A DNA stretch of 32,000 nucleotides from Trichodesmium erythraeum IMS101 (GTDB taxonomy: Bacteria; Cyanobacteriota; Cyanobacteriia; Cyanobacteriales; Microcoleaceae): assembly GCF_000014265.1 (NCBI RefSeq), contig NC_008312.1:5340001-5372000 (forward strand). The letters are read 5' to 3'. Made by a program: the position numbers and the translations under genes. Shown in pieces: positions 1 to 32,000 of the stretch. A model generated the notes under the pieces. It was not told where the DNA came from, ran no database searches, and worked only from the letters and a program-made list of their open reading frames with translations. Position 1 is the first letter of the stretch. Each line of letters starts with the position of its first letter.

Positions 1-1880
1 GTTGCTATCATCTACATCTGTGATACTAACATCGCTGTCTCCTATGTTTACTGCCGTTCCTTCTGTGAAAGTTGTTATGTAGTCACTGCCTGTTGTCGTA
101 CTATTATCCCCATCTAAGTCTAATACGGGAGCATCATTGACTCTAGCAATATTTATTGTTGTTGTGGCTGTACTACTATCAGCATCACCATCGTTCACCA
201 CTACGGTCACTATCCTATCGGTGGTATTAGGGTTTTCCGAGGTGTTGTTATATTGTATTTGGGCTATGGCTGTCTGATACTCAGCTAATGTAGCGCTGCC
301 TGTGAGTGTTATGACTCCTGTACTACTGTTATAACTGCTCGCTGTTATTCCTGTTGGTAGTGTACCGTTGACTAATAAGCTTTCTACTGTATCTCCGTCT
401 GGTCGACTGCCTAATGTTATTGTGGCTGACTCTATGTTGCTATCATCTTCATCTGTGATACTAACATCGCTGTCTCCTATGTTTACTGCCGTTCCTTCTG
501 TGAAAGTTGTTGTGTAGTTGTTCCCTGTAGCGGTACTACTATCATCGTCATCTAAGTCTAATGTGGGAGGGTCATTTACTGCAACAACACTTATTGTTGT
601 TGTGGCTGTGTTACTATTAGCATCACCATCGTTCACCACTACGGTTACTGTCCGAGCTGTCGTGGTGTCTGGGTTGTCCGAGGTGTTGTCATATTGTATT
701 TGGGCTATGGCTGTCTGATACTCAGCTAATGTAGCGGGGCCTGTGAGTGTTATGACTCCTGTACTACTGTTATAACTGCTCGCTGTTATTCCTGTTGGCA
801 GTGTACTGCTGACTGATAAGCTTTCTACTGTATCTCCGTCTGGTCGACTACTTAATGTTATTGTGGCTGACTGTATGTCGCTATCATCTACATCTGTGAT
901 ACTAACATCGTTGTCTGCTATGGCTACTGCTGCTCCATCTTCCGTGAAGGTTGTTATATAGTTGCTGCCTGTAAGTCTACCACTACTATCATTCTCATCT
1001 AAGTCTAATATGGGAGGGTCATTGACTGAAACAACACTTATTGTTGTTGTGGCTATATTACTATTAGCTTCACCATCATTCACCACTACGGTTACGCTCC
1101 GAGCCGTGGTGTTTGGGCTTTCCGAGGTGTTGTTGTATTGTATTTGGGCTATGGCTGTCTGATACTGAGATAATGTAGCGCTGCCTGTCAGTGTTATGAC
1201 TCCTGTACTACTAGTACTGTCATAAGTATAAGTACCGGCTGTTATTCCTGATGGCAGTGTACCGTTGACTAATAAGCTTTCTAATGTTCCGTCTTGTATG
1301 TTCGTTAATGTTATTGTGGCTGAGTCTATGTTGATATCATCTGCATCTGTTATACCAACATTGTTTCCTATAGGTACTGCTCCTCCGCCTTCTGTGAAAG
1401 TTTTTGTGTAGTCATTCCCTGTGTTATCCCCATCTAAGTCTAATGTGGGAGGGTCATTTACTGGAACAACACTTATTGTTGTTGTGGCTGTGTTACTATT
1501 AGCTTCACCATCATTCACCACTACAGTCACAGTCCGAGCCCTGCTGTCTGGGTTGTCCGAGGTGTTGTTATATTGTATTTGGGCTATGGCTGTCTGATAC
1601 TCAGCTAATGTAGCGGGGCCTGTGAGTGTTATGACTCCTGTACTACTGTCATAACTGCTCGCTGTTATTCCTGTTGGCAGTGTACCGGCGGATAAGCTTT
1701 CTAATGTTCCGTCTTGTATGTTCGATAATGTTATTGTGGCTGACTCTATGTTGATATCATCTGTATCTGTGATTCTAACATCGTTGTCTCCTATGGCTAC
1801 TGCTACTCCGCCTTCTGTGAAATTTGTTATGTAGTCGTTGCCTGTAGCGGTACTACTATTATTCCCATCTAAGTCTAACC
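1..1880 (-). repeat. In-frame tandem coding repeats, period 435-447 nt, four full copies plus a partial copy that continues off-window
   Basis: The anchor word CATCTAAGTC recurs at 111, 549, 996, 1431 and 1866. Long stretches are nearly identical between copies, for example 1-75 versus 437-512. Confidence 0.9.
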
Positions 1881-4512: not shown

Positions 4513-4959
4513 TATTGGACACTCCTGATAAGCAACAATAGAGCTTTACTTAAGGTTTTTATATAAAAAGTTTAATAATAATATTAGATTAACTTAACTA
4601 TTGAGAAATACTTAGTTTTCTTCTCAAGAATAATCAAGTCAGATTTTTTTTAAAGTTAATAAGTTTAATTTTCTGAGTCTTAAATAGGCAGGTTTGTTGA
4701 ATGAATATTTAGTCTTCTCAGAGCTAAGTATTCTTAACTAATTTCAGATAGTTTAATTAGAGGATAAGTTACAAGGTCTCGGAGTTAGTAAATCAAAAGA
4801 TGAAACCTTCAAAGTGATTCCTTTGTGATAGTGGGAAAAAACTATTAATAACTAACCAAAGTTGATAACAGGTGTTACCTGAAAAGGAAAATCATCTTCA
4901 CAATGACCAACCGGAAAACCTATAAGAAAATATCAATAAAATAAATCTTAGGGTCTACT

Positions 4960-5977: not shown

Positions 5978-6340
5978 ATGGAAATAACCCAAAGTATCCA
6001 TGCCGCTCTATTAGTTTCAGACCTGAAAAAAGCCCAACATTTCTACGGCCAAATTCTCGGTTTATCAAAAGTAGACCGCCCCCTCAACTTTCCGGGGACC
6101 TGGTATCAAGTGGGTAACTTCCAAATACATCTAATAGTATCCTCAGAAATAATTCCCGACATAGTTAACCCAGAGAAACTAGGTAGAAACAGACACTTAG
6201 CATTTTCAATTATTGACTTAGAGAAGGCCAAAACAAAACTCTTAGCAAATAACTGCCCAATTCAAGGAAGTGCTTCCGGCCGCGCCGCCTTATTTACTCA
6301 AGACCCTGATGGTAATATTATAGAGCTAAATCAAAAATAG
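5978..6340 (+). CDS. VOC (glyoxalase/bleomycin-resistance/dioxygenase fold) family protein, 120 aa
   Basis: The ORF-track protein reads IHAALLVSDLKKAQHFYGQILGL...GTWYQVGNFQIHLI...RHLAFSIIDLEKAK...LFTQDPDGNIIEL, a typical single-domain VOC pattern. Confidence 0.8.
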   Translation: MEITQSIHAALLVSDLKKAQHFYGQILGLSKVDRPLNFPGTWYQVGNFQIHLIVSSEIIPDIVNPEKLGRNRHLAFSIIDLEKAKTKLLANNCPIQGSASGRAALFTQDPDGNIIELNQK

Positions 6341-6446
6341 ACAAAACCAAGGTTGAAAAGTTAAAAATAATAGCCTATTAGTCATTCCCTACTTCCCATT
6401 TATACTACTTTAATATAATGTTGTTTCTTCCCTTATGATATAGCCT

Positions 6447-7757
6447 GTGAAAATTATTGCATATTCATACACCGATCCTCTGCAGGGACCAGCACCAGAC
6501 CAAACTATTTGGGGATGGGAAATTGACCAAATATATGAAGACCTAGGCGATCGCCAACAACTTGAAAAACTGCTACAGGACTCCGAAGCCGAACCACCTA
6601 ACTATCTCCTAGTTCAGGAACTAGAGGAACTAGGAAACTCAGTAGAAGAAGTGTGTAACCGCCTGGCTCAACTAGAAAGTCTGAAAATAAAAACGATCCC
6701 CCTAAAATCAGAAATCAAAATAAACCAACCCTGGCCCAGCACATCGAACATAACGAAAGCCGAGCTACTGAAACTCCTGAACGAAATTCGCCAAAAGCAA
6801 CACAGCCGAAAAATTCGTGAAGCCCATGCCCGTAACCGAGTCAAAGGAACACCTCCCCCAGGTAAAGCACCCTATGGTTACCGCCGAGGGAAAGACCGCT
6901 ATACCCTTGATAAAAACACCGCCCCCATCATTAAAGAATTTTTTGAAAGCTTTCTGTTATTCGGGTCTCTCCGTGGAGCCGTCCGTCATATTGAGCAAAA
7001 ATACGGAAAAAAAATCTCAGTCACCACAGGGCGACGTTGGTTAACTAACCCTGTTTATCGGGGAGACCTACAATATCAAAACGGTGAAATTATCTCCAAT
7101 GCCCATGTTCCCATTATTTCCAGAGAAGAAGCCTCTCAAGTAGAACGCTTGCTCCAAAGGAACAGCAAAATGCCACCACGAACCGCAAGCACTCCCCATT
7201 CTTTAGGAGGCTTAGTTGTGTGCAAAGAATGTCAGTCTCAAATGATAACTGCCAAAGTTACCACCTTTCGCAGAAACAAAGAGTACCTTTACCTACGGCC
7301 AAAAAGTTGCCCCCGTACGCAAAAATGTAAAGCCTTAGCCTATGAAGAAATATTAGAGCAAACCATAAAAACAATTTGTCAAGAGTTACCCCTTGCTGTT
7401 GCCTCTTTTGATGCGCCACAGATAGAAGAAGCTAAAGCGAACATCAAAAATAACATTTGTGAAAAAACAGAAATGCTTTCAAGACTACCAAATTTAATAA
7501 CTGAGGGAGTCTTTGACGAAGAAACAGCCAAACTCCGCGCTTACAAACTCAAAACAGAAATTTCTCAATTAGAAAACAAGCTTTATAAATTACCTCCAGT
7601 CAAGTTATTAGAAACAGCAAAAACAGTATCCATACCTCAGTTTTGGTGGGACTTATCTGAGTCAGAACGCAGATTTTACCTGCGGGAATTTATCAGTAGA
7701 ATAGAAATTATTCGTCAAGGTGTAAATTGGAATTTACAAGTAATTTTTGTATTTTAG
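6447..7757 (+). CDS. Large-serine-recombinase-like protein (recombinase domain, zinc ribbon, coiled coil) with a degenerate N-terminal catalytic domain
   Basis: GTG start. PPPGKAPYGYRRGKDRYTLDKNTAPIIKEFFESFLLFGSLRGAVRHIEQKYG...RRWLTNPVYRGDL matches the recombinase domain. CKECQSQM...CPRTQKC matches the Zn ribbon. A C-terminal coiled coil follows. The N-terminus reads IIAYSYTDPLQG where resolvases have GY.RVST..Q, and LEELGNS where they have LDRLGR. Confidence 0.7.
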   Translation: MKIIAYSYTDPLQGPAPDQTIWGWEIDQIYEDLGDRQQLEKLLQDSEAEPPNYLLVQELEELGNSVEEVCNRLAQLESLKIKTIPLKSEIKINQPWPSTSNITKAELLKLLNEIRQKQHSRKIREAHARNRVKGTPPPGKAPYGYRRGKDRYTLDKNTAPIIKEFFESFLLFGSLRGAVRHIEQKYGKKISVTTGRRWLTNPVYRGDLQYQNGEIISNAHVPIISREEASQVERLLQRNSKMPPRTASTPHSLGGLVVCKECQSQMITAKVTTFRRNKEYLYLRPKSCPRTQKCKALAYEEILEQTIKTICQELPLAVASFDAPQIEEAKANIKNNICEKTEMLSRLPNLITEGVFDEETAKLRAYKLKTEISQLENKLYKLPPVKLLETAKTVSIPQFWWDLSESERRFYLREFISRIEIIRQGVNWNLQVIFVF

Positions 7758-20024: not shown

Positions 20025-20689
20025 TTTTTTAAGGTAATAGGGAATGGAATAGGTCGAGAAAAATCTTTCCTCAGTTTTAATTTTCTACATATGCAGGAGC
20101 CCAAATTATCCTATTTCTCACTAATAGTTGTCAAACTGACGGTTCTTTTAACTACCAAGGTTTAAGGACATTAGAAATTAGTACGACTAAAGTATAGATA
20201 GGGAAATTTATAGCTAATACCATTTCTGAAAAACTTTTCTATGTTTTGCAACAGTAGGAGAATTAGCCATAACCTCAACCGACCCACCTCTAACCCCTCT
20301 GATGGGGGGGGGAACAAGGAATAACCATAGAAAGTCAATACAGCATAAAAATAATGAACAGAGTTGGGGGGTTGCTAATTATCAAAAAGGTTATTAGTGT
20401 GTTAATTACTTAATAGTTAAAATGTCACCTAGATATGATATATCTGACATTATTTTTGGGAATTGGTGTAACACAATTTCCAGTATTTTATAAAATACGG
20501 TAATTAATGTGGTATGACTAACAAGGGAAATATTTTTTTGCTTGTTTATTATCCTGCAACTAATCTTCCCTATTCCATGCTCCCTTTCTATCTATTAAAA
20601 TGATAAAACTAGACTAAAAATTACAGTTAATACTAAAACCTAGGCAAAAATCAAAAAAATTGTAAATATTATTGACCTATTTATTTATT

Positions 20690-21685
20690 ATGCAAATAAG
20701 TGATATTAAAACCTTATTGGAAGAATTACGCCAAAAAGCAACCGAAGCGATCGCCACAGCAGAAAACCGAGAAAAACTAGAAGACTTACGGATATACTAT
20801 CTGGGTAAAAAAGGTCAAGTATCTAAAATTCTTGGTGCGATGGGTAAACTGAGCCCAGAAGAACGACCAAAAGTAGGAGCGATCGCTAATGAAGTGAAAC
20901 AAGCCATCCAAACTAACCTAGATGAAAAACGTAGTAACTTACAAGCCTTAGAAATTGCAGCCCAGCTTAAAGCCGAAACCGTAGATGTCAGTATGCCAGG
21001 GGTACATCGCTCCCAGGGAAAAATTCACCCTCTGAATGGTCTTATAGACCGTGCCCTTGATATTTTCGTTGGTTTAGGATATACAATTTCCACCGGCCCA
21101 GAATTGGAAAGCGACTACTATAACTTTGAAGCTCTAAACACTCCGCCAGACCACCCGGCAAGAGATATGCAGGATACCTTTTACCTGGCAGACGGAAATT
21201 TAATGCGAACTCATACCTCCTCAGTCCAGATCCGTTACATGGAAAAACATGAACCCCCTATTCGAGTTATTGCTCCTGGTCGTGTTTATCGGCGGGATAC
21301 TGTAGACGCAACTCACGCTGCAGTGTTCCATCAAATTGAACTTTTAGCAGTAGATGAAGGACTGAGATTTTCTGACCTCAAAGGAACTATAAAAGAATTT
21401 CTCCGACAAATCTTTGGAGACTTACCTATTCGTTTCCGCGCTAGCTATTTCCCATTTACCGAGCCTTCAGCAGAAGTAGATTTAGAGTGGAATGGTAAAT
21501 GGTTAGAAGTATTAGGTTGTGGTATGGTAGACCCTAATGTTTTGCAAGCAGTAGGTTATGACCCGGAAAAATATACGGGTTTTGCAGCAGGTTTTGGGGT
21601 AGAAAGATTTGCTATGGTACTACACCAAATTGATGATATTCGGCGTGTTTATGCTAGTGACTTACGCTTTTTGCGGCAGTTTTAA
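20690..21685 (+). CDS. pheS: Phenylalanine--tRNA ligase alpha subunit
   Basis: [56 protein letters not shown] and [10 protein letters not shown] are present. I prefer the ATG at 20690 to the track's TTG at 20672. Confidence 0.93.
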
Positions 21686-21795
21686 CTGGCTTGACTTAAA
21701 CTGAGTGAAGAGTGTATGTAAGAATTTATTAACAATTTATATTGCTTACATAAATTACTTTTGATTTTTGAAATTTAATTTTGGAATTAATAAAT

Positions 21796-22536
21796 ATGCG
21801 TCAGACAGTAACATTATTAGTATTAACATTAATGATAGTTGTTAATTTTGCTAAAAAAGCTACTACAACTATCAAAACTGATCAGGTATCTGAAGAAACT
21901 GTTCAGGTATCTCCAGAAATTAGTCATGTATTCCCAGAAACTACTGAAAGTTCTGAAGACACTGCTAGTTTATGTCGTCAAGTTAATGACCCAGCAGGTT
22001 TAAAAGTTCAAAAAAGACCTACTCCTAATTCTCCTATAGTTGGTAGTGTATATCCTGATCAAGAGGTGAAATTAATTAAAGATTATCGAAAGATTAGAGG
22101 TCCCGCTGGTCGCACCTGGGTACAGATCACTTCTCCTATTGTGGGATTTGTATCTAAGGGTTTTCCAGGAAATGAGACTAATTTAAGAGAATGTTTTGAA
22201 GTTGCAGAAGAAACTTCAGGAGAATTTTCTGGTCAAAATACTTCTGGTGATAATTTGCGGACACAAACATCTCCAAATTCTCCCTATCCCCCAGAAACAG
22301 ATGAAAGTTTATGTCGTGAAATTGATAGAAAAAAAGCACCACGAGGTTTAGCAGTGCGTGGGGATGCTTCTAGACGTTCTGAGTATAGAGGAAAAGTACC
22401 TGTTGATAGCCAGCTTATTTTAGTAGACAATTATCAGTTAATTGGTGATAAAAATGGTGAAAAACGTAAGTGGGTGAAAATTATTTATCCTTTACAGGGG
22501 TTTGTTTCTGCTGGTAATTTGCTTGAGTGCAGGTAG
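21796..22536 (+). CDS. Secreted protein with two SH3b-like repeats, each bracketed by Cys residues
   Basis: ATG at 21796 gives the signal-like N-terminus MRQTVTLLVLTLMIVVNFA. Internal repeat: SLCRQV..GLKVQKRP...W(V)QITSPIVGFVSKGF...LRECF versus SLCREI..GLAVRGDA...KWVKIIYPLQGFVSAGNLLEC. Confidence 0.6.
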   Translation: MRQTVTLLVLTLMIVVNFAKKATTTIKTDQVSEETVQVSPEISHVFPETTESSEDTASLCRQVNDPAGLKVQKRPTPNSPIVGSVYPDQEVKLIKDYRKIRGPAGRTWVQITSPIVGFVSKGFPGNETNLRECFEVAEETSGEFSGQNTSGDNLRTQTSPNSPYPPETDESLCREIDRKKAPRGLAVRGDASRRSEYRGKVPVDSQLILVDNYQLIGDKNGEKRKWVKIIYPLQGFVSAGNLLECR

Positions 22537-22564
22537 TAGTTATTGAATCAAAGTTGAATCAAAG

Positions 22565-22608
22565 TAGGTTGGGTCAAACGAAGTGCAACCCAACCTATGG
22601 TCATTTTT
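22565..22608 (+). terminator. Probable rho-independent terminator of the SH3b-like gene
   Basis: A 10-bp perfect stem, TAGGTTGGGT (22565-22574) with ACCCAACCTA (22588-22597), and a 13-nt loop. A run of five T residues follows 6 nt later. Confidence 0.5.
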
Positions 22609-22873
22609 AATAAGAATGGAACACTTTTGATACTGAAACTTAGTTATAGCAAAAAAGATTTGTTTCAATCTAAATTAAAACGACTACAGACCAAACTCAG
22701 TTTAGTTATCAGCTTTATCCTAATAAAGGTAATAGGCAGTTATCAAAAACAGACTAAATTAAATTGAGAAAAAAAGCTTGATTTTAAAAGTAAGATACTT
22801 CTGCTTAAAGTATAAGAAACATAGGGTTAGAGAGAAATCTGAAAAACATACTTTGCTTATGGGAATTTGATTT

Positions 22874-22894
22874 CAGTTATCAGTTATCAGTTAT
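22874..22894. repeat. Three perfect tandem heptamers CAGTTAT (STRR-like)
   Basis: Read directly. Same heptamer family (AGTTATC rotation) as 13045-13079. Confidence 0.85.
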
Positions 22895-23120
22895 TAGTAC
22901 CTGTGGCTGAAGCTAGAGAGTAAAAAAGACATAAAGCGATGGCGAATATTTTTCTCCCGAACCTTGCAAAAGGAGTCTTGAGATCTAATTTTTTGGTCAT
23001 AGCAAGGAAGCAGAAGCAATCTTATGCTAACCCTGATAGTGCTTTTTTCCACAGAACGAAAAGTAATAATTAGGGTAACTTGACAGTATTGGTTGAATCA
23101 TTCTTGAATCTATAATAAAC

Positions 23121-24986
23121 ATGAGCATTAAAAAGAATTCCAAAAATTCCCGTAACCGTAAAATTGGAACTGTTTTATTAATTTTGGCAGGTGTGTTATT
23201 AGCAGTATACTTCTTCATGCCACGTCGCAAATATCCTCGTGTTCCTTATAGTGTATTTATTCAACAAGTGGAAAAAGGACAAGTGGTGGGAGTTCAAATA
23301 GATAACAAAAAAATTGTATATCGCCTCAAAGGAGAAGAAGATCAACTCGGACCTTTACTTGTCACTACTACAATAAATGATCCTCAATTACTTAAGCGTT
23401 TAGAAGATAATAAAGTTACATTTCAAGCCGCACTCCCGAAAAGTCCTTGGTTTACTATTCTTTTAAATTGGGTAATTCCACCAATTATATTAGTAGCAGC
23501 ATTTCAGTTTTTTATGAACCGTGGAACTCAAGGTTCTCTTTCAATTAGTAAGAGTAAAGCTAAAGCTTATGTGGAGGGAGAATCAGAAAAAATTACTTTT
23601 GCTGATATCGCTGGGGTGGAAGAAGCAAAGACAGAATTAACTGAAATTGTAGATTTCTTAAAAACACCAAAATGTTTTACTGAAATTGGTGCGAGAATTC
23701 CTAAAGGTTTGTTATTAGTCGGACCTCCGGGAACTGGTAAAACTTTATTATCAAAAGCAGTTGCTGGAGAAGCCGGAGTGCCATTTTTTAGTATTTCTGG
23801 TTCGGAGTTTGTGGAACTATTTGTTGGTACTGGTGCTGCTAGAGTTCGTGATTTGTTTAAACAGGCAAAAAAGAAGGCTCCTTGTATTATTTTTATTGAT
23901 GAAATAGATGCAATTGGTAAGTCGAGAACTAGTGGCAATTTTTACAGTGGTGGTAATGATGAACGGGAACAAACTTTAAATCAACTGTTAGCTGAAATGG
24001 ATGGTTTTGGAGCAGGAGATTTAACGGTTATTGTTTTAGCCGCGACTAACAGACCGGAAGCTTTAGATGCTGCTTTATTGCGTCCGGGAAGATTTGATAG
24101 ACAGGTATTAGTAGACCGTCCAGACTTAGTTGGTCGGGAGGCAATTTTAAATATTTATGCTAAAAAAGTTAAGTTGGGAGAAGATGTTGATGTGCATAAA
24201 ATAGCAGTTAGAACTCCTGGTTTTGGAGGGGCAGACTTAGCTAATATTGTGAATGAAGCTGCTTTATTAGCGGCCAGAAATAAACGGGAAACTGTTGCAC
24301 AAGTAGATTTTTCCGAAGCTATTGAAAGAGTGGTTGCTGGTTTGGAAAAAAGGAGTCGGGTTTTGAGCGATCGCGAAAAGAAAATTGTAGCTTATCATGA
24401 AGTTGGTCATGCTTTGGTTGCGGCGTTAATGCCTGGTAGTGGTAAGGTGGAAAAAATTTCAATTGTACCGAGGGGAATGGCTGCTTTGGGGTATACTTTG
24501 CAGTTGCCAACTGAGGAGAGATTTTTAAGAGATGAAACTGAAATTCGAGGGCAAATTGCTACTTTTTTAGGAGGTCGTGCTGCGGAGGAAATTGTCTTTG
24601 GAAGTATTACGACTGGAGCTTCAGGAGATTTACAAAAAGCTACAGATCTTGCTGAACAAATGGTGACAACTTATGGTATGAGTAAGGTTTTAGGACCTTT
24701 GGCTTATGAACGCCGTGGTCAAGGAGGATTTTTAAGCAATGAAGGTGTTAACCCCCGTCGTTTAGTTAGTGAAAAAACTGCCGAAGCAATTGATAATGAA
24801 GTGAAAGAAATTGTGGAAAAGGCTCATCAGCAAGCTAGGGAAATTTTGAATTATAATCAAGGTTTGCTCCAAAAGATTTCTCAGTATATTTTGGAAAAAG
24901 AAGTCATAGAAGGAGGAGAGTTATATGGGTTATTGGAAGAGGTGCGAACGCCACCAAGGAAGGATGTTAAAGAAGTCGAAAGTTAA
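23121..24986 (+). CDS. ftsH: ATP-dependent zinc metalloprotease FtsH
   Basis: N-terminal TM, Walker A GPPGTGKT, Walker B IIFIDEIDA, the SRH region and the HEVGHA zinc motif are present. Confidence 0.95.
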   Translation: MSIKKNSKNSRNRKIGTVLLILAGVLLAVYFFMPRRKYPRVPYSVFIQQVEKGQVVGVQIDNKKIVYRLKGEEDQLGPLLVTTTINDPQLLKRLEDNKVTFQAALPKSPWFTILLNWVIPPIILVAAFQFFMNRGTQGSLSISKSKAKAYVEGESEKITFADIAGVEEAKTELTEIVDFLKTPKCFTEIGARIPKGLLLVGPPGTGKTLLSKAVAGEAGVPFFSISGSEFVELFVGTGAARVRDLFKQAKKKAPCIIFIDEIDAIGKSRTSGNFYSGGNDEREQTLNQLLAEMDGFGAGDLTVIVLAATNRPEALDAALLRPGRFDRQVLVDRPDLVGREAILNIYAKKVKLGEDVDVHKIAVRTPGFGGADLANIVNEAALLAARNKRETVAQVDFSEAIERVVAGLEKRSRVLSDREKKIVAYHEVGHALVAALMPGSGKVEKISIVPRGMAALGYTLQLPTEERFLRDETEIRGQIATFLGGRAAEEIVFGSITTGASGDLQKATDLAEQMVTTYGMSKVLGPLAYERRGQGGFLSNEGVNPRRLVSEKTAEAIDNEVKEIVEKAHQQAREILNYNQGLLQKISQYILEKEVIEGGELYGLLEEVRTPPRKDVKEVES

Positions 24987-25209
24987 AAGTGAAGATAAGT
25001 CAAAACCAAAAGTATAATTTGCTTATTTATCTATTAATACCTCTTCATAAAGTATTTGCCCCTTACTCTGCCATTCCATTCATAGGCATTTTTGGAAAGG
25101 TCAATAAATAAACCAAATTCCTCCTGAAAAAAATCTGGTACCAATAGCACTTGGGGTACATGATGAAGTATATTTGAAGAGTAACCGACCCTACCCCACC
25201 AAATGCATT

Positions 25210-25992
25210 ATGCCCAGAAAACCTCGAAATCTTTTAGCTGGATACTCCTATCACATTACGACTCGTTGCAATAACCGTGAATTTAAACTTTCACGGCGCC
25301 AATGTCGGGAGGTATTTCTTTATGCTATTAAAAAGGTTTCCACAAAATACAATTTTCGGCTTTATGCATTGTGCATTATGTCTAATCATGTTCATTATTT
25401 GATTGAACCCTTACAACCAGAAGATTTACCGAAAATCATGCACTTCCTCAACTGGTATACGGCTATGTGTTTCAACAGAATGTTAAAACGTACAGGGCAT
25501 TTTTGGGAAAAACGATATTACTCTAATGGGTTTCCTTCCTCAGATAAAGAAAGAGCATTGAATACTTTGCGTTACATTCATGGCAACCCTAAAGCTGCCA
25601 AAATGCGTTGCGGCTTTTTCTACGACTTTAGCAACTATGGTAGCTACGAATGTTTGACTAATGATGGCCTAACTCAATGGCATCCTGCTTTCTTGGAGTT
25701 AGCTAACACTCTGGAAGAATGTGCACAAAAATATAAGGGATTTTGTCGTAAATATAAGCCCAAACAAAAAAAAGGAAAAAAGTGTCACTGGGGTAGTAAG
25801 TTTTTAGGGGGTATTGTTCTGTCTTTTGATGGCAGAAATTCTCGTTCTACGAAGAAGAACTCTACAAAAAAGAAGGAGTCAACCCTCTTTGACTTTCCGC
25901 CGACGGTAATGCCGGAGGAAAATAAAGAAATAGCAAGGGTAGTTAGTCAATTTGTTGTAGCCAATAGACCCTCAGTCAGATGGGGGGGGTAA
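25210..25992 (+). CDS. HUH/Y1 single-strand DNA transposase-like protein of the RAYT/IS200 (Y1_Tnp, COG1943) type with a Lys-rich C-terminal tail
   Basis: YHITTRCNNREF is present. The HUH motif SNHVHYLIEP has its first His at 25387-25389. The catalytic-Tyr motif LRYIHGNPKAA has Tyr at 25573-25575. I prefer ATG 25210 (MPRKPRNLL...) to TTG 25174. The gene has host-like AT-rich composition. Confidence 0.8.
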   Translation: MPRKPRNLLAGYSYHITTRCNNREFKLSRRQCREVFLYAIKKVSTKYNFRLYALCIMSNHVHYLIEPLQPEDLPKIMHFLNWYTAMCFNRMLKRTGHFWEKRYYSNGFPSSDKERALNTLRYIHGNPKAAKMRCGFFYDFSNYGSYECLTNDGLTQWHPAFLELANTLEECAQKYKGFCRKYKPKQKKGKKCHWGSKFLGGIVLSFDGRNSRSTKKNSTKKKESTLFDFPPTVMPEENKEIARVVSQFVVANRPSVRWGG

Positions 25993-26434
25993 ACATCCTC
26001 GCCGGCTTCCCTGTTTCCCCCCGCGGCGCTCTATGTAGGCCACATGCTCCCCGCCGGCCGCCGCGGCCGCCGCCGCCGCTGCGCTGCGCTGTCATTTGGC
26101 CACCCCGCGCTCCCTCTCGCCGCGCTGTCCAAAAGTTCCGCTGTCCATCTGGGGTGTCCATCTCTGATGGGCCATTTTGTGTAGTGAGGTCCGCTGTCCA
26201 TCTCTTTTCTTGTCAGACTTAGGGACTTGAAGGTGTCGGGCAAGGGGTCTGGCACGGAGGCAACGGCGCCACCCTGCGCTCCCTCAAGTTGGCTTGTGCT
26301 GAGTTGTCCAAACAAAAAATAACACCATCCATCACCATGAGTAGGGAGTTAGGATGATGGGGAGGAAGGCGCCACCCACCGAAGGCGCCACCCTGCGCTC
26401 CCTCGGGGTGTGCTGGTGCTGAGTTGGTGTCCAT

Positions 26435-26468
26435 TGCGCTCCCTCTGCGCTCCCTCATGCGCTCCCTC
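26435..26468 (+). repeat. Tandem triple TGCGCTCCCTC (iteron-like), copy 1
   Basis: 11-mers start at 26435, 26446 and 26458, so the spacing is 11 and 12 bp. Confidence 0.9.
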
Positions 26469-26854
26469 AGGGGTGATCTGGTTCACGAGCGCCCACGCCA
26501 TTGTGGCCCATGTGGCAAAAAGGCAGTTGGTGGCCCACAAAAGTAAAGGCCGCCACAAGGCCGCCATCGCCATACACATACTAAGGCCACAGGCCACTGG
26601 CGCGGATAACCGATCGGGAGGCGGCGGAACCGGGAAGGATCTAAGAATAAATCGGCGGGGCGCGGACCGGCGGAGGAGGAGGGGGCGCGGAAGAGGGGAA
26701 AACCACCCTGCGCTTTTTCTAGTTGGCTGCAGCAGAGTGGAGTCCATTGCGCTCCCTCGACTTCCGACTGACTTAAAAGACTTAGGTTTTTGCACGGGGG
26801 CGGCTGATCTGGCAGGCTGATCTGTGTGGTGTCTTGTGCTGAGTTGGTGTCCAT

Positions 26855-26888
26855 TGCGCTCCCTCTGCGCTCCCTCATGCGCTCCCTC
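26855..26888 (+). repeat. Tandem triple TGCGCTCCCTC (iteron-like), copy 2
   Basis: Identical to 26435-26468, offset by 420 nt. Confidence 0.9.
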
Positions 26889-27356
26889 AGGGGTGATCTG
26901 GTTCAGGTTCAGGTTCGAACGTCCAAGGGGGACACAGGGGACACGCGTCGAAGGGCCTAGATGGCCACGGCGCTTCCGAGCGCCCTTATGCCATTGTGGC
27001 CCATGTGGCAAGGAGTTGGCAGTTGGTGGCCCACCATAGTTGGTGGCCCACGGCCCAGGGAGGCCGCCACAAGGCAACTTAACGATCAATCGATCCGAAA
27101 TTAGGCACGCGGGCCGGCTGCTCAGGTAGGTATGGTGGCTCATAGTTGCATTGGTTGCAACCACCCTGCACTTTTTCAAGTTGGCTGCAGCAGAGTGGAG
27201 TCCATTCCGCTCCCTCGACTTTGGACTTAAGGGGTGAAGGGGTTGCAGGTGATCTGGGATAAGTGTGGTGTCTCATGTGGTTGGAAGTAGTTTTTTGATT
27301 TTATAATGGATAATTAACATTAGCATAGTTTTTGGATTTATGAACAGGATTTTATT

Positions 27357-30300
27357 ATGAACAGATGTCTTATGGCTTTTCCTTTCCTTTCCATAGCCTT
27401 TCCTTTCCTTTCCGTCTGCACTTTCCTTGTTTTTTCCCCCTTCGCCCTCGCTCAACTCCTGCCAGATAATACATTGGGAGAAGAAAATTCTGTCGTCACA
27501 CCCAATAATATAAAAGGGAAAGATCGCATCATAATAGATGGCGGGGCCCAAAGAGGGGCCAACTTATTCCACAGTTTTCAAGAATTCAACATTCAACAGG
27601 GACGAGGGGTTTACTTTAGCAACCCTGATGGAGTTCAAAATATCCTGACGAGGGTCACAGGAAACAAGGCTTCTCAGATATTTGGCACCTTGGGTGTAGA
27701 TGGAAAAGCTGATTTATTTTTCATTAACCCCAATGGCATAATTTTTGGGCCAGAGGCTAAACTAGATGTCCAAGGTTCATTCTTTGGAGCTACTGCGGAT
27801 AGTATCTTATTTAACAATGGATTTGAATTTGCTAGTTCAGACCCTCAAGCACCCCCACTACTAACAGTTAATGTTCCCATTGGTTTGAGGTTGCCCGAAA
27901 ACCCTGGTAGTATTTTGGTTGAGGGTCTAGGTCATAACATAAATATGTCAGAGTACCTAGAAACGATATTCGACGGAAAGGAAAAAGGCCCTCGAGACGG
28001 AAAAGAGGACCGGAATCTTGGGTTGGAAGTTTCCCAAGGCCAAACCTTGGGGTTAGTTGGTGGTGATATATTCTTAAGGGGGGGAAACCTCACATCAATT
28101 GGAGGACGTGTTGAATTAGGAAGTGTTCACAATGGGGTAGTAGGAATCAGGAAAGACCAAACCCTTAGCTATGATCCCAACCTGAAATTTGGCCAAATAC
28201 AAATATCTAAAGAGAGCTCTATAGATGTAAGTGGAAATGGAAGAGTTGAATTTCAAATTCAAGGAGAAGAGATAAAAGTGCGAGATGCTTCAATAATTAC
28301 AGGAGAGATTAAAGGCGAAGGCGAAGGCGAAGGCGAAAAAGGGGGAAATTCAATTATTAAAGCGTCTAAGTCTATTAAAATAGAAGCCGGAGAGTATTCG
28401 GAACTAACTTTAAGGTTAACTTCCGATAAACTTCCGAAACAAGATTTTAATTTTAATAAGACTTACAGTGCTATTATTCTAAGCACTTTCGGTAAGAGAG
28501 ATGTCGGGGAGTTGAAGGTGGAAACAGAAAGTTTAACGCTGCAAGATGGAGCCTTTATTTCTACGACTACTTCTGGTCAGGGAAATGCAGGGAATATTAC
28601 AGTCTCTGCTAGAGACATAGAAATGAATGGTGGCGGTGACGGTGCTACTTTGGTTACAATGACATTTGCATTTGCAAAAGGTAACGCAGGGAATTTAACG
28701 CTGAAAGCTGCAGAAAGTTTAACGCTGCACGACGCTATCATTTCTACGGGATCTTTTGGTTCAGCTCAGGGAAATACAGGGAAATTAACAGTCTCCGCTA
28801 ATGCTATAGAAATAAATGCCGTAGCGAGCGAGGGGGCTGGTTTTTTTAGCGAGCGAGGCAGTGGCAAAGGTAAGGGAGGGAATTTAACGGTGAAAGCTGC
28901 AGAAAGTTTAACGCTAGTTGGCAATGGATTTATTTCTACCAGTACTTTTGGTGATGGAGATGCAGGGAATTTAACAGTGTCTGCTAGAGATATAGAAATG
29001 AGTGGGACAAGTCGGATGGCGGCACAAACAGGTACAAGGCAAACAGGTGGCAAAGGTAAGGGAGGGACTTTAATGGTGAAAGCTGCAGAAAGTTTAACGC
29101 TGCAAGATAAAGCCTTTATTTCTACCGATACTAAAGGTGATGGAGATGCAGGGAATTTAACAGTGTCTGCTAGAGATATAGAAATGAACAGTGTCTTTGG
29201 TTTGCTTGCACAGACAGAAAACAAAGGTAATGGAGGGAATTTAACGGTGAAAGCTGCAGAAAGTTTAACGCTAGTTGGCAATGGAGTTATTTCTACCAGT
29301 GCTTTTGGTGATGGAGATGCAGGGAATTTAACAGTGTCTGCTAGAGATATAGAAATGAGTGGGAAAAGTCGGATGGTGGCACAAACAGGTAGAAGGCAAA
29401 CAGGTGGCAAAGGTAAGGGAGGGACTTTAATGGTGAAAGCTGCAGAAAGTTTAACGCTGCAAGATGAAGCCTTTATTTCTACCACTACTTTTGGTGATGG
29501 AGATGCAGGGAATTTAACAGTGTCTGCTAGAGATATAGAAATGAGTAGTATTTTTGGTTCTGGTGTGTTTGCACAGACAGAAAACAAAGGTAATGGAGGG
29601 AATTTAACGGTGGAAGTTGCAGAAAGTTTAACACTGCAAGATGGAGCCATTATTTCTACCAGAAGTCTTGGTGATGGAGATGCAGGAAATATAACTATCT
29701 CTGCTAGAGATATAGAAATAATTGGCACATCTCCTGATGGTAAATACTTCAGTAGCTTAACCGCAGAAGGCAGAGCAAAAGGAGCAGCAGGAAGCATAAC
29801 CATCAACAGCAACAACATCCGCCTCGAAAACCAAGCTAACCTCAAAGCTGAAACCCAAGCAGGGGGTGAAGGCAGCATTATCATCAATAATAACAAAGAC
29901 CTCATCCTGCGCAACAAAAGCAAAATAACCACTAGTGCTAAAGGCAGGGCCACTGGAGGTAATATTACTATTAAGACGGAAAACTTAGTCGCCCCAGATA
30001 ACAGCGACATCTCTGCTGACGCTGAAAAAGCATCTGGAGGCCAAGTCGACATCACCGCAGCAGGTATATTCGGCATAAAATTCCGTCCTGAAAAAACAGA
30101 AAGAAGTGATATCACAGTCACCTCAGAATTTGACAGAGATGGAGAAGTCAATATCAACACCCCCGATGTAGATCCTAGTGACGGACTAGTAGAATTTGAC
30201 GATACCATCCCAGATATCTCCAACCTCCTCGACCAAAACCCTTGCCGAAAAGGACAAAACAGCAAATTCATCATTACAGGAAGAGGTGGCTTACCACCAA

Positions 30301-32000
30301 CTCTCGAAGATCCCTTTACTCCCACCCACATCTGGCAAGGCTCAGAAACCTCAGTTACTCCTCCAAAAGCCATCACTCCATCAGAGCAAGAATTCATTGA
30401 AGCACAAGGTTGGATCTCTAATTCTCAAGGTATTGAACTGATCACCAACCCCGAAACTGCTACTCCCACCTCCCCTTGGTTAATACCTCCCAACTGCAAA
30501 CAATTAGACGCCTTTGAACCCCCACCCTATCTACTCGCTAGCAGTAAGGGAAATATTCCCACCTCAACTTCTGAACCTCTAAAAGTTACTATCAAACAAT
30601 TCAACTTTGAGGGTAACACAAAATTTAGCAACCAAGAGCTACAACAACAACTCACACCTTATCTAAATAAACCCATTACCTTTGCTCAACTCATAGCAGC
30701 ACGCACTGCTATTACAAAATATTATACCAAAAACAACTACATCACATCGGGAGCATTTATTCCTCCCCAAACTATGTCTGACAATGGCACAGTTACCCTC
30801 CGAGTAGTAGAAGGAAAAGTTGGTGAAATCAACGTCAATATCCAAGGTAGATTAAATGAAAATTATATCAAAAGTCGGTTAGAAAAAGCTACCACAGCTC
30901 CTCTGAATCAAGAAAAATTGGTGTCTGCCCTACAACTATTACAAATAGACCCTTTAGTCAAAACTATATCTGCGGAACTTTCATCCGGAGTCCGCCCAGA
31001 TACAAGTAGGTTAGACATAAGAATAGAAACAGCTAACCCCTGGCAAATAGAAACTATCAGTAATAATGGCAGGGCACCAAGTGTGGGAACATTCAGGCGA
31101 GGGGTAGAAGTAGGTCATAGGAATGTTACAGGTATTGGAGACAGTTTAAATGCTCTCTACACGAATACTGATGGCAGCGACATGGTAGAAGTATCTTATG
31201 CTATTCCTGTGAACTCCAGTAATGGTCGTATCGAACTATTTTATCGCCACAGAGATAATAAGGTAGTAGAATCACCTTTTGAAAGACTCGATATTGAGTC
31301 AAATTCAAATACTTACAAGTTATCATTTAGTCAACCAATAATGCAAACACCCTGGCAAACTTTAACTTTGGGTTTATCTGCAATAAAGCGAGATAGTCAA
31401 ACTTCCATATTAGGAGAGAATTATCCATTATCTGAGGGTGCAGATGAAAATGGGGAAACGAAATTATCAATTTTGCAGCTTTTCCAAGATTATGAACTAC
31501 GGGGAAAAAATCAAGTTTTGGCGTTTAATTCTCAGTTGAATGTAGGGTTGGGAATATTGGATGCCACAAAGAATAGTAGTGAACCGGATAGTCGATTTTT
31601 GTATTGGCGGGGTCAGGGACAATGGGTGCGTGAGTTAGCCAAAAATACTTTGTTGGTGGTTGGAGCAGATCTACAGTTATCTCCATTTGATTTGGTGCCT
31701 AAAGAGCAGTTTGGTTTAGGAGGTTATCGAAGCGTGAGAGCCTATCGTCAGGATACTCGTTTAACAGATAATGGAGCGTTGGGAACAGTGGAGTTGCGCT
31801 TGCCGCTGCCCTGGATATCTGGAAAAAATAGATTATTTCAGGTAGTGCCGTTTATTGATGGGGGGGTAGCATGGAATAGTGATGATGAAGAGGTAGAAGG
31901 AAGTAAGGCTTTGGCGGCGGCCGGGGTGGGGTTGCAGGTAAATTTATGGGAGAAGATAAATATGCGCTTAGATTATGGAATTCCTTTAGTGGATGTGGAC
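27357..32000 (+). CDS. Single-ORF fusion of a TpsA-like passenger (signal peptide, TPS/haemagglutination-activity domain, FHA-type beta-helix repeats) to a TpsB-like transporter (two POTRA modules and a ShlB/FhaC-type barrel). The 3' end lies beyond the window.
   Basis: Hand translation from ATG 27357 gives MNRCLMAFPFLSIAFPFLSVCTFLVFSPFALAQ, then GAQRGANLFHSFQEFNIQQGRGVYFSNPDGVQNILTRVTGNKASQIFGTLGVDGKADLFFINPNGIIFGPEAKLDVQGSFF (TPS domain). Seven GNAGNLTV.A..IE-type units follow. Next come ...KFIITGRGGLPPTLEDP (~30275) and EAQGWISNSQGIELI. POTRA follows: LKVTIKQFNFEGNTKFSNQELQQQLTPYLNKPITFAQLIAARTAITKYYTKNNYITSGAFIPPQ...VTLRVVEGKVGEINV (from ~30579). The barrel carries FGLGGYRSVRAYRQD (L6 VRGY-type motif). 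I saw no stop in 1548 codons. The ORF track lists no + ORF ending inside this span in this frame, which agrees. Confidence 0.8.
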   Translation, partial: MNRCLMAFPFLSIAFPFLSVCTFLVFSPFALAQLLPDNTLGEENSVVTPNNIKGKDRIIIDGGAQRGANLFHSFQEFNIQQGRGVYFSNPDGVQNILTRVTGNKASQIFGTLGVDGKADLFFINPNGIIFGPEAKLDVQGSFFGATADSILFNNGFEFASSDPQAPPLLTVNVPIGLRLPENPGSILVEGLGHNINMSEYLETIFDGKEKGPRDGKEDRNLGLEVSQGQTLGLVGGDIFLRGGNLTSIGGRVELGSVHNGVVGIRKDQTLSYDPNLKFGQIQISKESSIDVSGNGRVEFQIQGEEIKVRDASIITGEIKGEGEGEGEKGGNSIIKASKSIKIEAGEYSELTLRLTSDKLPKQDFNFNKTYSAIILSTFGKRDVGELKVETESLTLQDGAFISTTTSGQGNAGNITVSARDIEMNGGGDGATLVTMTFAFAKGNAGNLTLKAAESLTLHDAIISTGSFGSAQGNTGKLTVSANAIEINAVASEGAGFFSERGSGKGKGGNLTVKAAESLTLVGNGFISTSTFGDGDAGNLTVSARDIEMSGTSRMAAQTGTRQTGGKGKGGTLMVKAAESLTLQDKAFISTDTKGDGDAGNLTVSARDIEMNSVFGLLAQTENKGNGGNLTVKAAESLTLVGNGVISTSAFGDGDAGNLTVSARDIEMSGKSRMVAQTGRRQTGGKGKGGTLMVKAAESLTLQDEAFISTTTFGDGDAGNLTVSARDIEMSSIFGSGVFAQTENKGNGGNLTVEVAESLTLQDGAIISTRSLGDGDAGNITISARDIEIIGTSPDGKYFSSLTAEGRAKGAAGSITINSNNIRLENQANLKAETQAGGEGSIIINNNKDLILRNKSKITTSAKGRATGGNITIKTENLVAPDNSDISADAEKASGGQVDITAAGIFGIKFRPEKTERSDITVTSEFDRDGEVNINTPDVDPSDGLVEFDDTIPDISNLLDQNPCRKGQNSKFIITGRGGLPPTLEDPFTPTHIWQGSETSVTPPKAITPSEQEFIEAQGWISNSQGIELITNPETATPTSPWLIPPNCKQLDAFEPPPYLLASSKGNIPTSTSEPLKVTIKQFNFEGNTKFSNQELQQQLTPYLNKPITFAQLIAARTAITKYYTKNNYITSGAFIPPQTMSDNGTVTLRVVEGKVGEINVNIQGRLNENYIKSRLEKATTAPLNQEKLVSALQLLQIDPLVKTISAELSSGVRPDTSRLDIRIETANPWQIETISNNGRAPSVGTFRRGVEVGHRNVTGIGDSLNALYTNTDGSDMVEVSYAIPVNSSNGRIELFYRHRDNKVVESPFERLDIESNSNTYKLSFSQPIMQTPWQTLTLGLSAIKRDSQTSILGENYPLSEGADENGETKLSILQLFQDYELRGKNQVLAFNSQLNVGLGILDATKNSSEPDSRFLYWRGQGQWVRELAKNTLLVVGADLQLSPFDLVPKEQFGLGGYRSVRAYRQDTRLTDNGALGTVELRLPLPWISGKNRLFQVVPFIDGGVAWNSDDEEVEGSKALAAAGVGLQVNLWEKINMRLDYGIPLVDVD
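28869..29588 (+). repeat. Two near-identical in-frame super-repeats (357 and 363 nt), each made of two beta-helix units, inside the TPS-fusion gene
   Basis: GGTAA(G/T)GGAGGGAATTTAACGGTGAAAGCTGCAGAAAGTTTAACGCTAGTTGGCAATGGA starts at 28869 and 29226, and a third diverging copy starts at 29589. By eye the two copies differ by only scattered substitutions. Confidence 0.85.

Follow-up and report, generated by a model that had tools for sequence, protein, structure and literature searches.

A GC-rich island of Trichodesmium erythraeum IMS101 as a probable tandem array of double-glycine peptide cassettes facing a TnpA_REP-like gene

Trichodesmium erythraeum IMS101 carries, in the 32,000-nt stretch of chromosomal DNA analysed here (contig NC_008312.1; hereafter the window), a GC-rich island of short repeated words, which is bounded on one side by a Y1/HUH transposase-like gene and on the other by a gene for a fused TpsA-TpsB protein (the TPS gene). 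We consider that this island is probably a tandem array of precursor-peptide cassettes, lying on the minus strand and head-on to the Y1 gene, the product of which resembles TnpA_REP. An abundant transcript that has been filed as the messenger RNA of a 276-aa hypothetical protein, Tery_3486, would accordingly be re-read as the messenger of a 65-aa double-glycine peptide together with decayed copies of its gene. The most plausible reading of the island is a fast-evolving, strongly expressed double-glycine cassette array, in an arrangement hitherto proposed for prochlorosins only. The coordinates of all features are collected in Table 1.

The island has a GC content of 60.5% overall, compared with approximately 35% for the genome. 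The GC profile runs at 0.60–0.63 across 26001–27200, with 0.37–0.41 immediately before and 0.42 after, and bears out the compositional step at the Y1 stop codon (25990–25992) and the fall near 27290 that were described in the initial annotation, which was made from the sequence alone. Its inventory of repeated words was likewise reproduced: GCGCTCCCTC occurs in exactly ten exact copies, each where it had been reported, with CCGCTCCCTC at 27207, and further words recur three times (AGTTGGTGGCCCAC, GGCGCCACCC and GTCCATCT) or twice (GCCATTGTGGCCCATGTGGCAA). When up to one mismatch is allowed, there are 12 occurrences of GCGCTCCCTC where 0.48 are expected. The 70-nt duplicated block was recovered as a 73-nt pair of 99% identity (26413–26485 and 26833–26905), and the 63-nt block belongs to a 69-nt pair of 93% identity (26701–26769 and 27159–27227). 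The restriction of repeats to one strand is also real, with 366 direct pairs of 9-mers compared to 5.8 in dinucleotide shuffles, and two inverted pairs compared to 7.3. The claim that GCGCTCCCTC has no reverse-complement copy holds for exact copies, but not for near-copies, one of the 12 occurrences being a near-copy on the reverse strand (26679–26688, within a purine tract). The words recur in the same order along the island because they are arranged in tandem with a period of approximately 420–500 nt, overlaid by micro-duplications of 3–12 nt.

An assembly chimera, a possibility raised at the outset, is excluded, since the island lies in the finished 7.75-Mb IMS101 chromosome and 2.6 kb of it and its surroundings are assembled identically in two other, independent assemblies. 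No 12-mer of the island occurred elsewhere in approximately 0.95 Mb of sampled cyanobacterial DNA, which speaks against the suggestion of a dispersed GC-rich repeat family, and no match to the island was found in plasmid or phage collections. A scan of viral contigs with 16-mers from the island gave single chance matches only; among the matches listed in an 18-mer scan of metagenomes there were chance matches only, in contigs of approximately 66% GC, and no relative. Rfam gave no match at gathering thresholds and chance matches only at E <= 10, in keeping with the initial failure to recognise a known RNA family, and a tRNA search of the island found none. The island was correctly held to be neither a set of repetitive extragenic palindromes (REP) or bacterial interspersed mosaic elements (BIME) nor the end of an insertion sequence (IS); it has no palindromic units, and its words are not dispersed in the DNA sampled.

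Transcription of the island is documented by Pfreundt et al. (2014; PMC4143802), who entered Tery_3486 as ‘HP, unusually GC rich 60%’, treated it as an mRNA and, in their Table 1, gave its gTSS as 5367312r, with a count of 833,051 primary reads that puts it among the ten strongest of 6,080 start sites. Since Tery_3486 is the minus-strand open reading frame (ORF) of the island and its gTSS lies on the reverse strand, the island is transcribed from the minus strand, convergently with the Y1 gene, and this transcription is very strong. Two proposals of the initial annotation are thereby replaced: instead of a 5' leader of the TPS gene there is an independent, very strongly expressed unit on the opposite strand, and instead of a 3' extension of the HUH transcript there is a separate minus-strand transcription unit. 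Because transcription proceeds from the minus strand, the word repeated in the RNA is GAGGGAGCGC, rather than the CUCCCUC that had been expected. No minus-strand terminator was predicted ahead of the Y1 gene.

The gTSS class is defined by a 5' untranslated region (UTR) of <=200 nt, and the transcription start site (TSS) must therefore lie between 27180 and 27379. In this interval −10-like hexamers occur solely at 27298–27354, in an AT-rich spacer upstream of the start codon of a small reading frame, ORF-A. As the difference between 5,367,312 and 27,312 is exactly 5,340,000, the TSS can be placed at approximately 27312, around which the −10-like boxes TATGCT (27327–27322) and TG-n-TAATGT (27322–27317) are found. 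Other strains retain this promoter and 5'UTR region (27277–27356), which the divergently oriented TPS gene shares. The TPS start codon (27357) is approximately 45 nt from the putative TSS of the divergent peptide transcript; the TPS promoter may overlap 27313–27356 or sit within the GC-rich island, and co-regulation of both genes is possible.

ORF-A begins with an ATG 36 nt past this TSS, and the ATG is conserved in all strains. The description of the island as non-coding is upheld for most of its length, but fails for ORF-A, where coding constraint is specific to the frame and the leader carries a double-glycine motif. Four real Trichodesmium-type relatives of ORF-A emerged when 1.84 billion representative proteins were searched exhaustively with phmmer; they have in common the N-terminus MRHHTD..EVEGAQWTPLCCSQLEK[AV]QGG (that is, MRHHTD..PFKSEVEGAQWTPLCCSQLEK(A/V)QGG), followed by unrelated C-termini. 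In the contigs that encode them, island-type DNA lies downstream of the ORF, and the upstream side carries the promoter spacer and TPS start known from IMS101 or, in one case, a different gene. Two further phmmer matches, P0162 and P0163, were rejected as low-complexity coiled-coil proteins. First cassettes that begin with ATG are all intact, with lengths of 62–97 aa and leaders of 117, 132 or 135 nt; across the five distinct first cassettes the leader is common to all and the cores are unalignable. Gaps in the leader nucleotide alignment are all multiples of three (3, 6, 6, 6, 6, 6 and 12 nt), the ratio of non-synonymous to synonymous variation (pN/pS) is 0.29 in the ATG frame compared to 0.64 and 1.94 in the other two frames, and variable sites fall at codon positions 1/2/3 in the numbers 11/9/16. 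The leader of ORF-A is under coding constraint, and its core is hypervariable.

The leader ends in LCCSQLEKVQGG, a double-glycine motif of the form L-x3-Q-L-x2-V-x-G-G placed directly before the core, where the published consensus is L-x3-E-(I/L)-x2-(I/V)-x-G-(G/A) (PMC3140520). In a relaxed form this motif occurs once in the six frames of the window, in ORF-A, against 0.001 expected from shuffles of the island. ORF-A does not match the cyanobactin models TIGR03678 and TIGR04446, and no cyanobactin-type ORF, recognised by the C-terminal recognition sequence xAGDDAE or SYDGDDE, is present in the island.

The relationship between the island and the Y1 gene was assessed across 80 loci from other cyanobacteria with Y1 homologs of 60–80% identity, precursors being counted over 62 of these loci. 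Large excesses of direct repeats occur immediately downstream of the Y1 stop in many homolog loci, and the repeats are tandem units, each with a Y1 3'-end copy, a spacer that is conserved and a short ORF on the minus strand. These unit ORFs are cyanobactin precursors (TIGR04446, 82.8 bits with a cutoff of 35; TIGR03678, 57.2 bits with a cutoff of 39.6). Under relaxed criteria, precursor ORFs face the Y1 gene in 25 of the 62 loci, in 13 of them with a stop-to-stop distance of 32–36 nt. Under strict criteria, which use the remainder of each locus as control and in which the facing zone makes up 10% of the search space, 29 cyanobactin-type ORFs were found in the facing zone and four elsewhere, while all eight double-glycine-type ORFs (from six loci) were in the facing zone; altogether, 37 of 41 precursor-type ORFs face the Y1 gene. 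Additional copies of the Y1 3'-end lie downstream in 17 of the 62 loci and upstream in two. The facing architecture thus holds across the Y1 family; the link drawn initially between the island and its HUH neighbour is upheld, and the pairing of Y1 genes with precursors extends beyond prochlorosins to cyanobactin and double-glycine precursors, at at least 20 loci in three orders. A GC-rich tail, by comparison, was rejected as a general trait of Y1 homologs, the homolog loci lacking one.

Several features of the homolog loci may be recorded. Cyanobactin-type loci (L012, L013, L016–L021, L023, L025, L027, L029, L032, L035, L037, L039, L041–L043, L045, L048, L050, L072 and L078) span Nostocales, Oscillatoriales and Chroococcales, and carry tandem precursors with hypervariable cores downstream of the Y1 homolog, which is at approximately 6000–6800 in each. 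At double-glycine-type loci (L031, L034, L055, L061, L067 and L073) the ORFs are on the minus strand, 126–1044 nt past the Y1 stop, and none was found in other parts of these six loci; their leaders end, for example, in ...LSDGELESIVGG or ...DVQLEVVSGG, and some form a pair of cassettes that differ in the core but not in the leader. The spacer of approximately 34 nt between the Y1 and precursor stops is conserved across genera (TTTGAGGTGAGTGGTAGAATNAGG; L017 6763–6796, L012 9878–9910) and carries, on the strand of Y1, an extended −10-like TGGTAGAAT; it might promote antisense transcription into the precursor gene or be a site recognised by a protein.

In the IMS101 island, read along the minus strand from 5' to 3' and starting at the promoter, ORF-A is followed by a GC-rich spacer (26837–27078), which contains GTGGCGGCCT (27070–27061), two copies of GGGCCACCAACT, CCACATGGGCCACAATGGC and a triple GAGGGAGCGC (26888–26856). 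Next is a pseudo-cassette, cassette B, whose leader copy (26836–26702) is frameshifted and lacks the ATG, having CAAGACACC in place of ATGAGACACC, and whose core-like part (26701–26483) has a 1-nt deletion relative to the strain variant L101, where the counterpart ends in ...PPPPDR*, as do several other cores. Two truncated remnants and a Y1-proximal tail complete the array, the first ~165 nt of the tail being kept in all strain variants; every cassette and remnant is on the minus strand and converges on the Y1 gene, which is on the plus strand. The word GCGCTCCCTC is the reverse complement of GAG-GGA-GCG-C, which encodes E-G-A-Q in the leader, plus slipped copies. Eleven 10-mers of the GCGCTCCCTC type are spread over all three codon phases, and most of them are therefore nucleotide-level duplicates rather than coding copies.

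Table 1. Features of the island and adjoining genes, with positions in the window.
Feature	Position	Strand	Description	Evidence
GC-rich island, whole	25993..27290	-	Probable array of peptide-cassette units repeated in tandem every ~440-460 nt; minus-strand transcription	GC, repeat and strand data
Promoter and 5'UTR of minus-strand transcript	27277..27356	-	AT-rich, 23-28% GC	TSS of PMC4143802, -10 boxes, conservation
ORF-A	27079..27276	-	Intact promoter-proximal cassette, 65 aa; stop 27081-27079	
ORF-A leader	27276-27160	-	39 aa, MRHHTYPRSPATPSPLKSKVEGAEWTPLCCSQLEKVQGG; conserved in other Trichodesmium strains	
ORF-A core	27159-27082	-	26 aa, CNQCNYEPPYLPEQPARVPNFGSIDR; hypervariable between strains	
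Inter-cassette spacer	26837..27078	-	64% GC; conserved as a unit in other strains	
Cassette B	26483..26836	-	Pseudo-cassette	Strain comparison
Truncated cassette remnant	26388..26485	-	Triple GAGGGAGCGC and internally deleted leader ending CAGGGTGG	
Truncated leader remnant	26268..26310	-	Minus-strand reading '...QLEGAQGG'	
Y1-proximal tail	25993..26265	-	65% GC; micro-duplications (GTCCATCT three times, runs of CCG/CGGCCGCCG)	
Tery_3486	26349..27179	-	Annotated ORF, 276 aa; judged spurious (wrong frame, wrong extent)	
Y1/HUH gene ABG52575 (Tery_3485 by gene order)	25210..25992	+	260 aa	Pfam Y1_Tnp, 66.6 bits
Y1 unit	25021..26031	+	~1.0 kb, common to different contexts (at least two)	BLAST against L004-L010, flank alignment
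Imperfect palindrome over Y1 stop	25983..26022	.	GGGGGG-TAAACA...TGTTT-CCCCCC	Present in every Y1 copy
Tery_3487	27357..32000	+	Fused TpsA-TpsB (TPS, POTRA, ShlB); divergent neighbour, runs past window end	

On this evidence a strong promoter fires leftwards from ~27312, within the AT-rich spacer of 67 nt that the TPS gene also uses, and the resulting RNA ranks among the most abundant primary transcripts of T. erythraeum IMS101. From it the first cassette (27276–27079) would give a 65-aa peptide, consisting of a 39-aa double-glycine leader and a 26-aa core, while the downstream copies have lost their start codon or are frameshifted or truncated. The reuse of the same words, in the same order and on the same strand, would then be explained by decayed cassette copies and GC-rich spacers. 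The peptide is presumably translated and cleaved after the GG, and a C39-peptidase ABC transporter whose gene lies outside the window would export it; four bacteriocin clusters with such exporters have been described from other parts of the genome (PMC3140520). The Y1 enzyme, or recombination promoted by it, may amplify and reshuffle the cassettes. A secreted peptide could serve allelopathy or signalling within colonies of Trichodesmium, a globally important nitrogen fixer. A wider proposition, that the TnpA_REP-like Y1 proteins of cyanobacteria are dedicated engines for the amplification and diversification of the precursors they face, with the ATG-less Trichodesmium cassettes as silent donors, is conceivable if unlikely. 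Were it true, it would cover cyanobactins, double-glycine peptides and prochlorosins alike, and recombination of internal cassettes into the single expressed cassette would amount to pilin-like variation of a secreted peptide. The hypothesis of peptide diversification driven by a single-stranded DNA transposase has now become testable in culturable, genetically tractable cyanobacteria.

A number of observations weigh against the cassette array as we propose it. The GC richness of the array is foreign to the host and is unaccounted for by coding, since the non-coding spacers are even richer in GC (64%), and spacers and tail together range over 60–65%; a foreign origin or a biased process of repair or recombination are possible sources. 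The GC content at third codon positions (GC3) of ORF-A is 0.49, compared to 0.23–0.37 in host genes (0.23 and 0.31 for FtsH and PheS in 20672–24986), and ORF-A has no Shine-Dalgarno sequence. Its leader departs from the double-glycine consensus at position −8, where Q conservatively replaces E, and ORF-A has no match in Pfam or NCBIfam at E <= 1, the GG-leader, Nif11 and NHLP models included. The coding signal itself derives from five distinct sequences and approximately 35 variable sites. Neither a C39 exporter nor a modification enzyme is encoded within the window. IMS101 also departs from the arrangement of other Y1 loci, in that the window has no extra copies of the Y1 3'-end (the related locus L106 has two) and the 32–36 nt spacing is absent, the intact cassette ending 1087 nt from the Y1 stop with decayed remnants only at nearer positions. 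Some Trichodesmium lineages lack the right two-thirds of the island together with the promoter, which makes this part dispensable. The exact TSS coordinate presupposes an offset of 5,340,000 for the window, which is itself inferred, and the authors of the preprint that provides the precedent call a causal role of TnpA_REP unproven (bioRxiv 10.1101/2020.03.09.984088).

Tery_3486 as annotated is spurious. The case for a genuine 276-aa protein consists of its presence in the genome annotation, its handling as an mRNA in PMC4143802 and a frame open over 276 codons, but long ORFs arise by chance at 60% GC. When the frame (27179–26349, minus strand; the longest ORF of the island) was compared with 5.8 billion proteins there were two matches, one of them, at 100%, being its own entry (metaclust 203124.Tery_3486), which leaves a single other match. 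Relative to the variant L101, which is 96.7% identical over 950 nt, four of five indels shift the frame, and the substitutions at codon positions 1/2/3 number 4/8/3, with no third-position bias. There is no three-base periodicity in the island, and neither Pfam nor NCBIfam matched any island ORF. A genuine protein of this extent is hardly credible, and the initial judgement that the long, overlapping, R/P/G-rich ORFs are artefacts was sound.

Other explanations of the island retain some merit. It might specify a purely non-coding abundant RNA, in which the repeated GAGGGAGCGC would offer multivalent binding sites that soak up a protein or C/U-rich RNA, as a sponge does, or which would act by convergent antisense or interference against Y1. 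This would suit a very strong TSS, an absence of any predicted minus-strand terminator before Y1, the occurrence of the 11 10-mer copies in all three phases, which indicates conservation at the nucleotide rather than the peptide level, and the fact that most of the island is demonstrably without coding, with no hidden Markov model backing the peptide. We nevertheless think it unlikely, given the frame-specific purifying selection and 3n-only indels of the leader, the ATG kept 36 nt past the TSS in all strains and the location of the double-glycine motif exactly in ORF-A; moreover, cassette and slippage duplication accounts for the 10-mer copies, and folding is no more stable on either strand than in dinucleotide shuffles (minus strand, z = −0.50; plus strand, z = −0.71), which also disposes of the long structured RNA put forward in the initial annotation. 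Alternatively, the island could be the decaying remnant of a foreign GC-rich cassette array, now neutral junk behind a strong promoter and shaped by slippage and unequal crossing-over with no role for Y1. Its lineage-specific distribution (absent from L106–L109, truncated in L102–L104 and L003), the pseudogenised internal cassettes, the GC3 and spacer GC unlike those of the host, the micro-duplications that vary between strains and the lack of a DNA relative in plasmids or phages are all as expected of such a remnant. A first cassette that is intact and constrained in five distinct variants, expression among the highest in the cell and a facing arrangement repeated in at least 20 unrelated cyanobacterial loci are not, and make this explanation quite unlikely.

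It is very unlikely, finally, that the island is a cis-acting DNA substrate array, a REP/BIME-like or G-quadruplex target to be cut and copied by the HUH/Y1 enzyme, even though REP-associated tyrosine transposases (RAYT) are the nearest match of the Y1 protein, the island begins at the Y1 stop codon and 39 nt past that stop accompany every Y1 copy. No inverted repeats of >=14 nt exist inside the island, so that the REP-type or hairpin substrate envisaged initially has no structure to correspond to it there; the palindrome over the stop codon is not statistically exceptional (DNA fold −10.4 kcal/mol, z = −1.07); GGGGWSAS, a motif of a TnpA_REP subgroup, is not enriched (four observed compared to 3.5 expected); a G-quadruplex motif is absent from both island strands; the island's words are not dispersed in the approximately 0.95 Mb sampled; and most of the island falls outside the common Y1 unit.

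The precursor-cassette reading finds its closest parallel in the procA/tnpA_REP systems of picocyanobacteria, where precursors face the transposase gene at a fixed distance, are interspersed with C-terminal transposase fragments and have conserved leaders and variable cores (bioRxiv 10.1101/2020.03.09.984088). The same preprint names the T. erythraeum TnpA_REP as a relative, and states that relatives elsewhere, Trichodesmium included, are not colocalised with lanthipeptide genes, the association being unique to picocyanobacteria. As in that system, a Y1 gene with a C-terminal extension, TnpA_REP-like in IMS101, stands head-on to precursor genes in IMS101, the conserved leader ends in GG before a hypervariable core, and the locus differs between close strains. 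Unlike it, the IMS101 peptide is not a Nif11-type lanthipeptide precursor, no profile matches it and no ProcM/LanM is nearby; interspersed transposase C-terminal fragments are lacking, only one cassette is intact, and the array is much richer in GC than the host. The cyanobactin arrays (PatE/AcyE/PagE) resemble IMS101 in that Y1 homologs (60–80% identical) face precursors with conserved leaders and variable cores, in tandem units of approximately 370–700 nt whose copy number varies between strains; they differ in matching curated models, in their 32–36 nt stop-to-stop distance and in units that often include a Y1 3'-end copy, whereas Trichodesmium has a double-glycine cassette, with neither the spacing nor the Y1 copies. 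A single-copy ‘transposase’, ‘ISpagF’, of a size matching Y1, is mentioned in passing for the Planktothrix pag cyanobactin cluster (PMC9366434).

With the double-glycine precursors of bacteriocins and of ribosomally synthesised and post-translationally modified peptides, which are exported by C39-peptidase ABC transporters (Dirix et al. 2004; Wang, Fewer and Sivonen 2011, PMC3140520), ORF-A shares the leader register, the short ORF and the variable core; Q at −8, the lack of a profile match and the lack of an adjacent exporter or modification gene set it apart, and cleavage and export are predicted. The island is similar to proteobacterial REP/BIME and RAYT systems in that GC-rich repeats adjoin a domesticated Y1 transposase gene, but its repeats are non-palindromic, on one side and in one orientation, not dispersed and derived from gene cassettes. 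One promoter-proximal expressed copy followed by ATG-less partial copies with conserved and variable segments also recalls pilE/pilS, a purely formal resemblance, given that there is no evidence of gene conversion and no G-quadruplex element.

In other Trichodesmium genomes the interval between the Y1 and TPS genes contains islands of differing make-up. L101 has an additional duplication; L102–L104 have only the left ~420 nt of the island, followed by unrelated AT-rich DNA; L003 and L005 have ~470 nt of island joined to a truncated TPS gene; and in L106–L109 the island is absent, with decayed duplicates of the Y1 3'-end and a minus-strand ORF of 131 aa and ordinary composition in its place. 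Micro-duplications differ from strain to strain. In L106 the 131-aa ORF (2329–1934, minus strand) is preceded by two decayed Y1 3'-end copies, has an N-terminus, EWTELNLQELDQIFGS, in double-glycine register and has no Pfam or NCBIfam match. Homology between this ORF and the island leader was not significant (BLASTP E = 0.92) and none is claimed, because the double-glycine register alone is held in common. A sequence beginning CTTCTCCATAGTTGATTTATA recurs at junctions (L004 4806–4830, L005 1–25, and ~560–600 nt past the Y1 stop in L102–L104), and the side of the Y1 unit on which these fall varies between contigs, which suggests that the sequence is the end of another mobile or recombinogenic element rearranging the locus.

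The Y1 protein itself has the HUH motif H60-V-H62, the catalytic tyrosine motif Y122-IHGNP and a C-terminal extension. Its best NCBIfam match is REP_Tyr_transpos, at 64 bits (below the cutoff of 80), compared to 27 bits for the IS200 model (cutoff 55), and by sequence it appears to be a TnpA_REP/RAYT-like tyrosine transposase. An identical protein is present in several genomic contexts, in a unit made up of ~190 nt upstream, the gene and 39 nt past the stop. Hairpins of IS200 or REP type were looked for at the ends of this unit, where the end structures were not significant. IMS101 has a second Y1 paralog, ABG50303 (L093/L094 6001–12753; 250 aa), which has no GC-rich tail and lies 1.4 kb from a gene for a C39-peptidase double ABC transporter of >1700 aa; between the two are direct repeats, short and rich in GC, and a called minus-strand ORF of 32 aa (7408–7506).

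The neighbour on the other side of the island, Tery_3487, is a fused TpsA-TpsB protein that has been treated in the literature (PMC2878562; PMC3297439). It contains an internal array, especially at 28500–29750, of diverged repeats of approximately 180–360 nt with a GC skew of +0.3 to +0.4, and owing to these repeats the opposite strand has a spurious ORF of 543 aa (28766–30397); the length of the repeat region differs from that of the L106 ortholog. Other proteins of the window include FtsH (ABG52574) and SurE (ABG52571), together with a DUF4347 protein of >1515 aa that runs off the left end (1–4545, minus strand). A serine recombinase with Resolvase, Recombinase and Zn-ribbon domains (6447–7757, plus strand) is located within a stretch of 26–33% GC that holds several ORFs without a family match and may be an integrated element.

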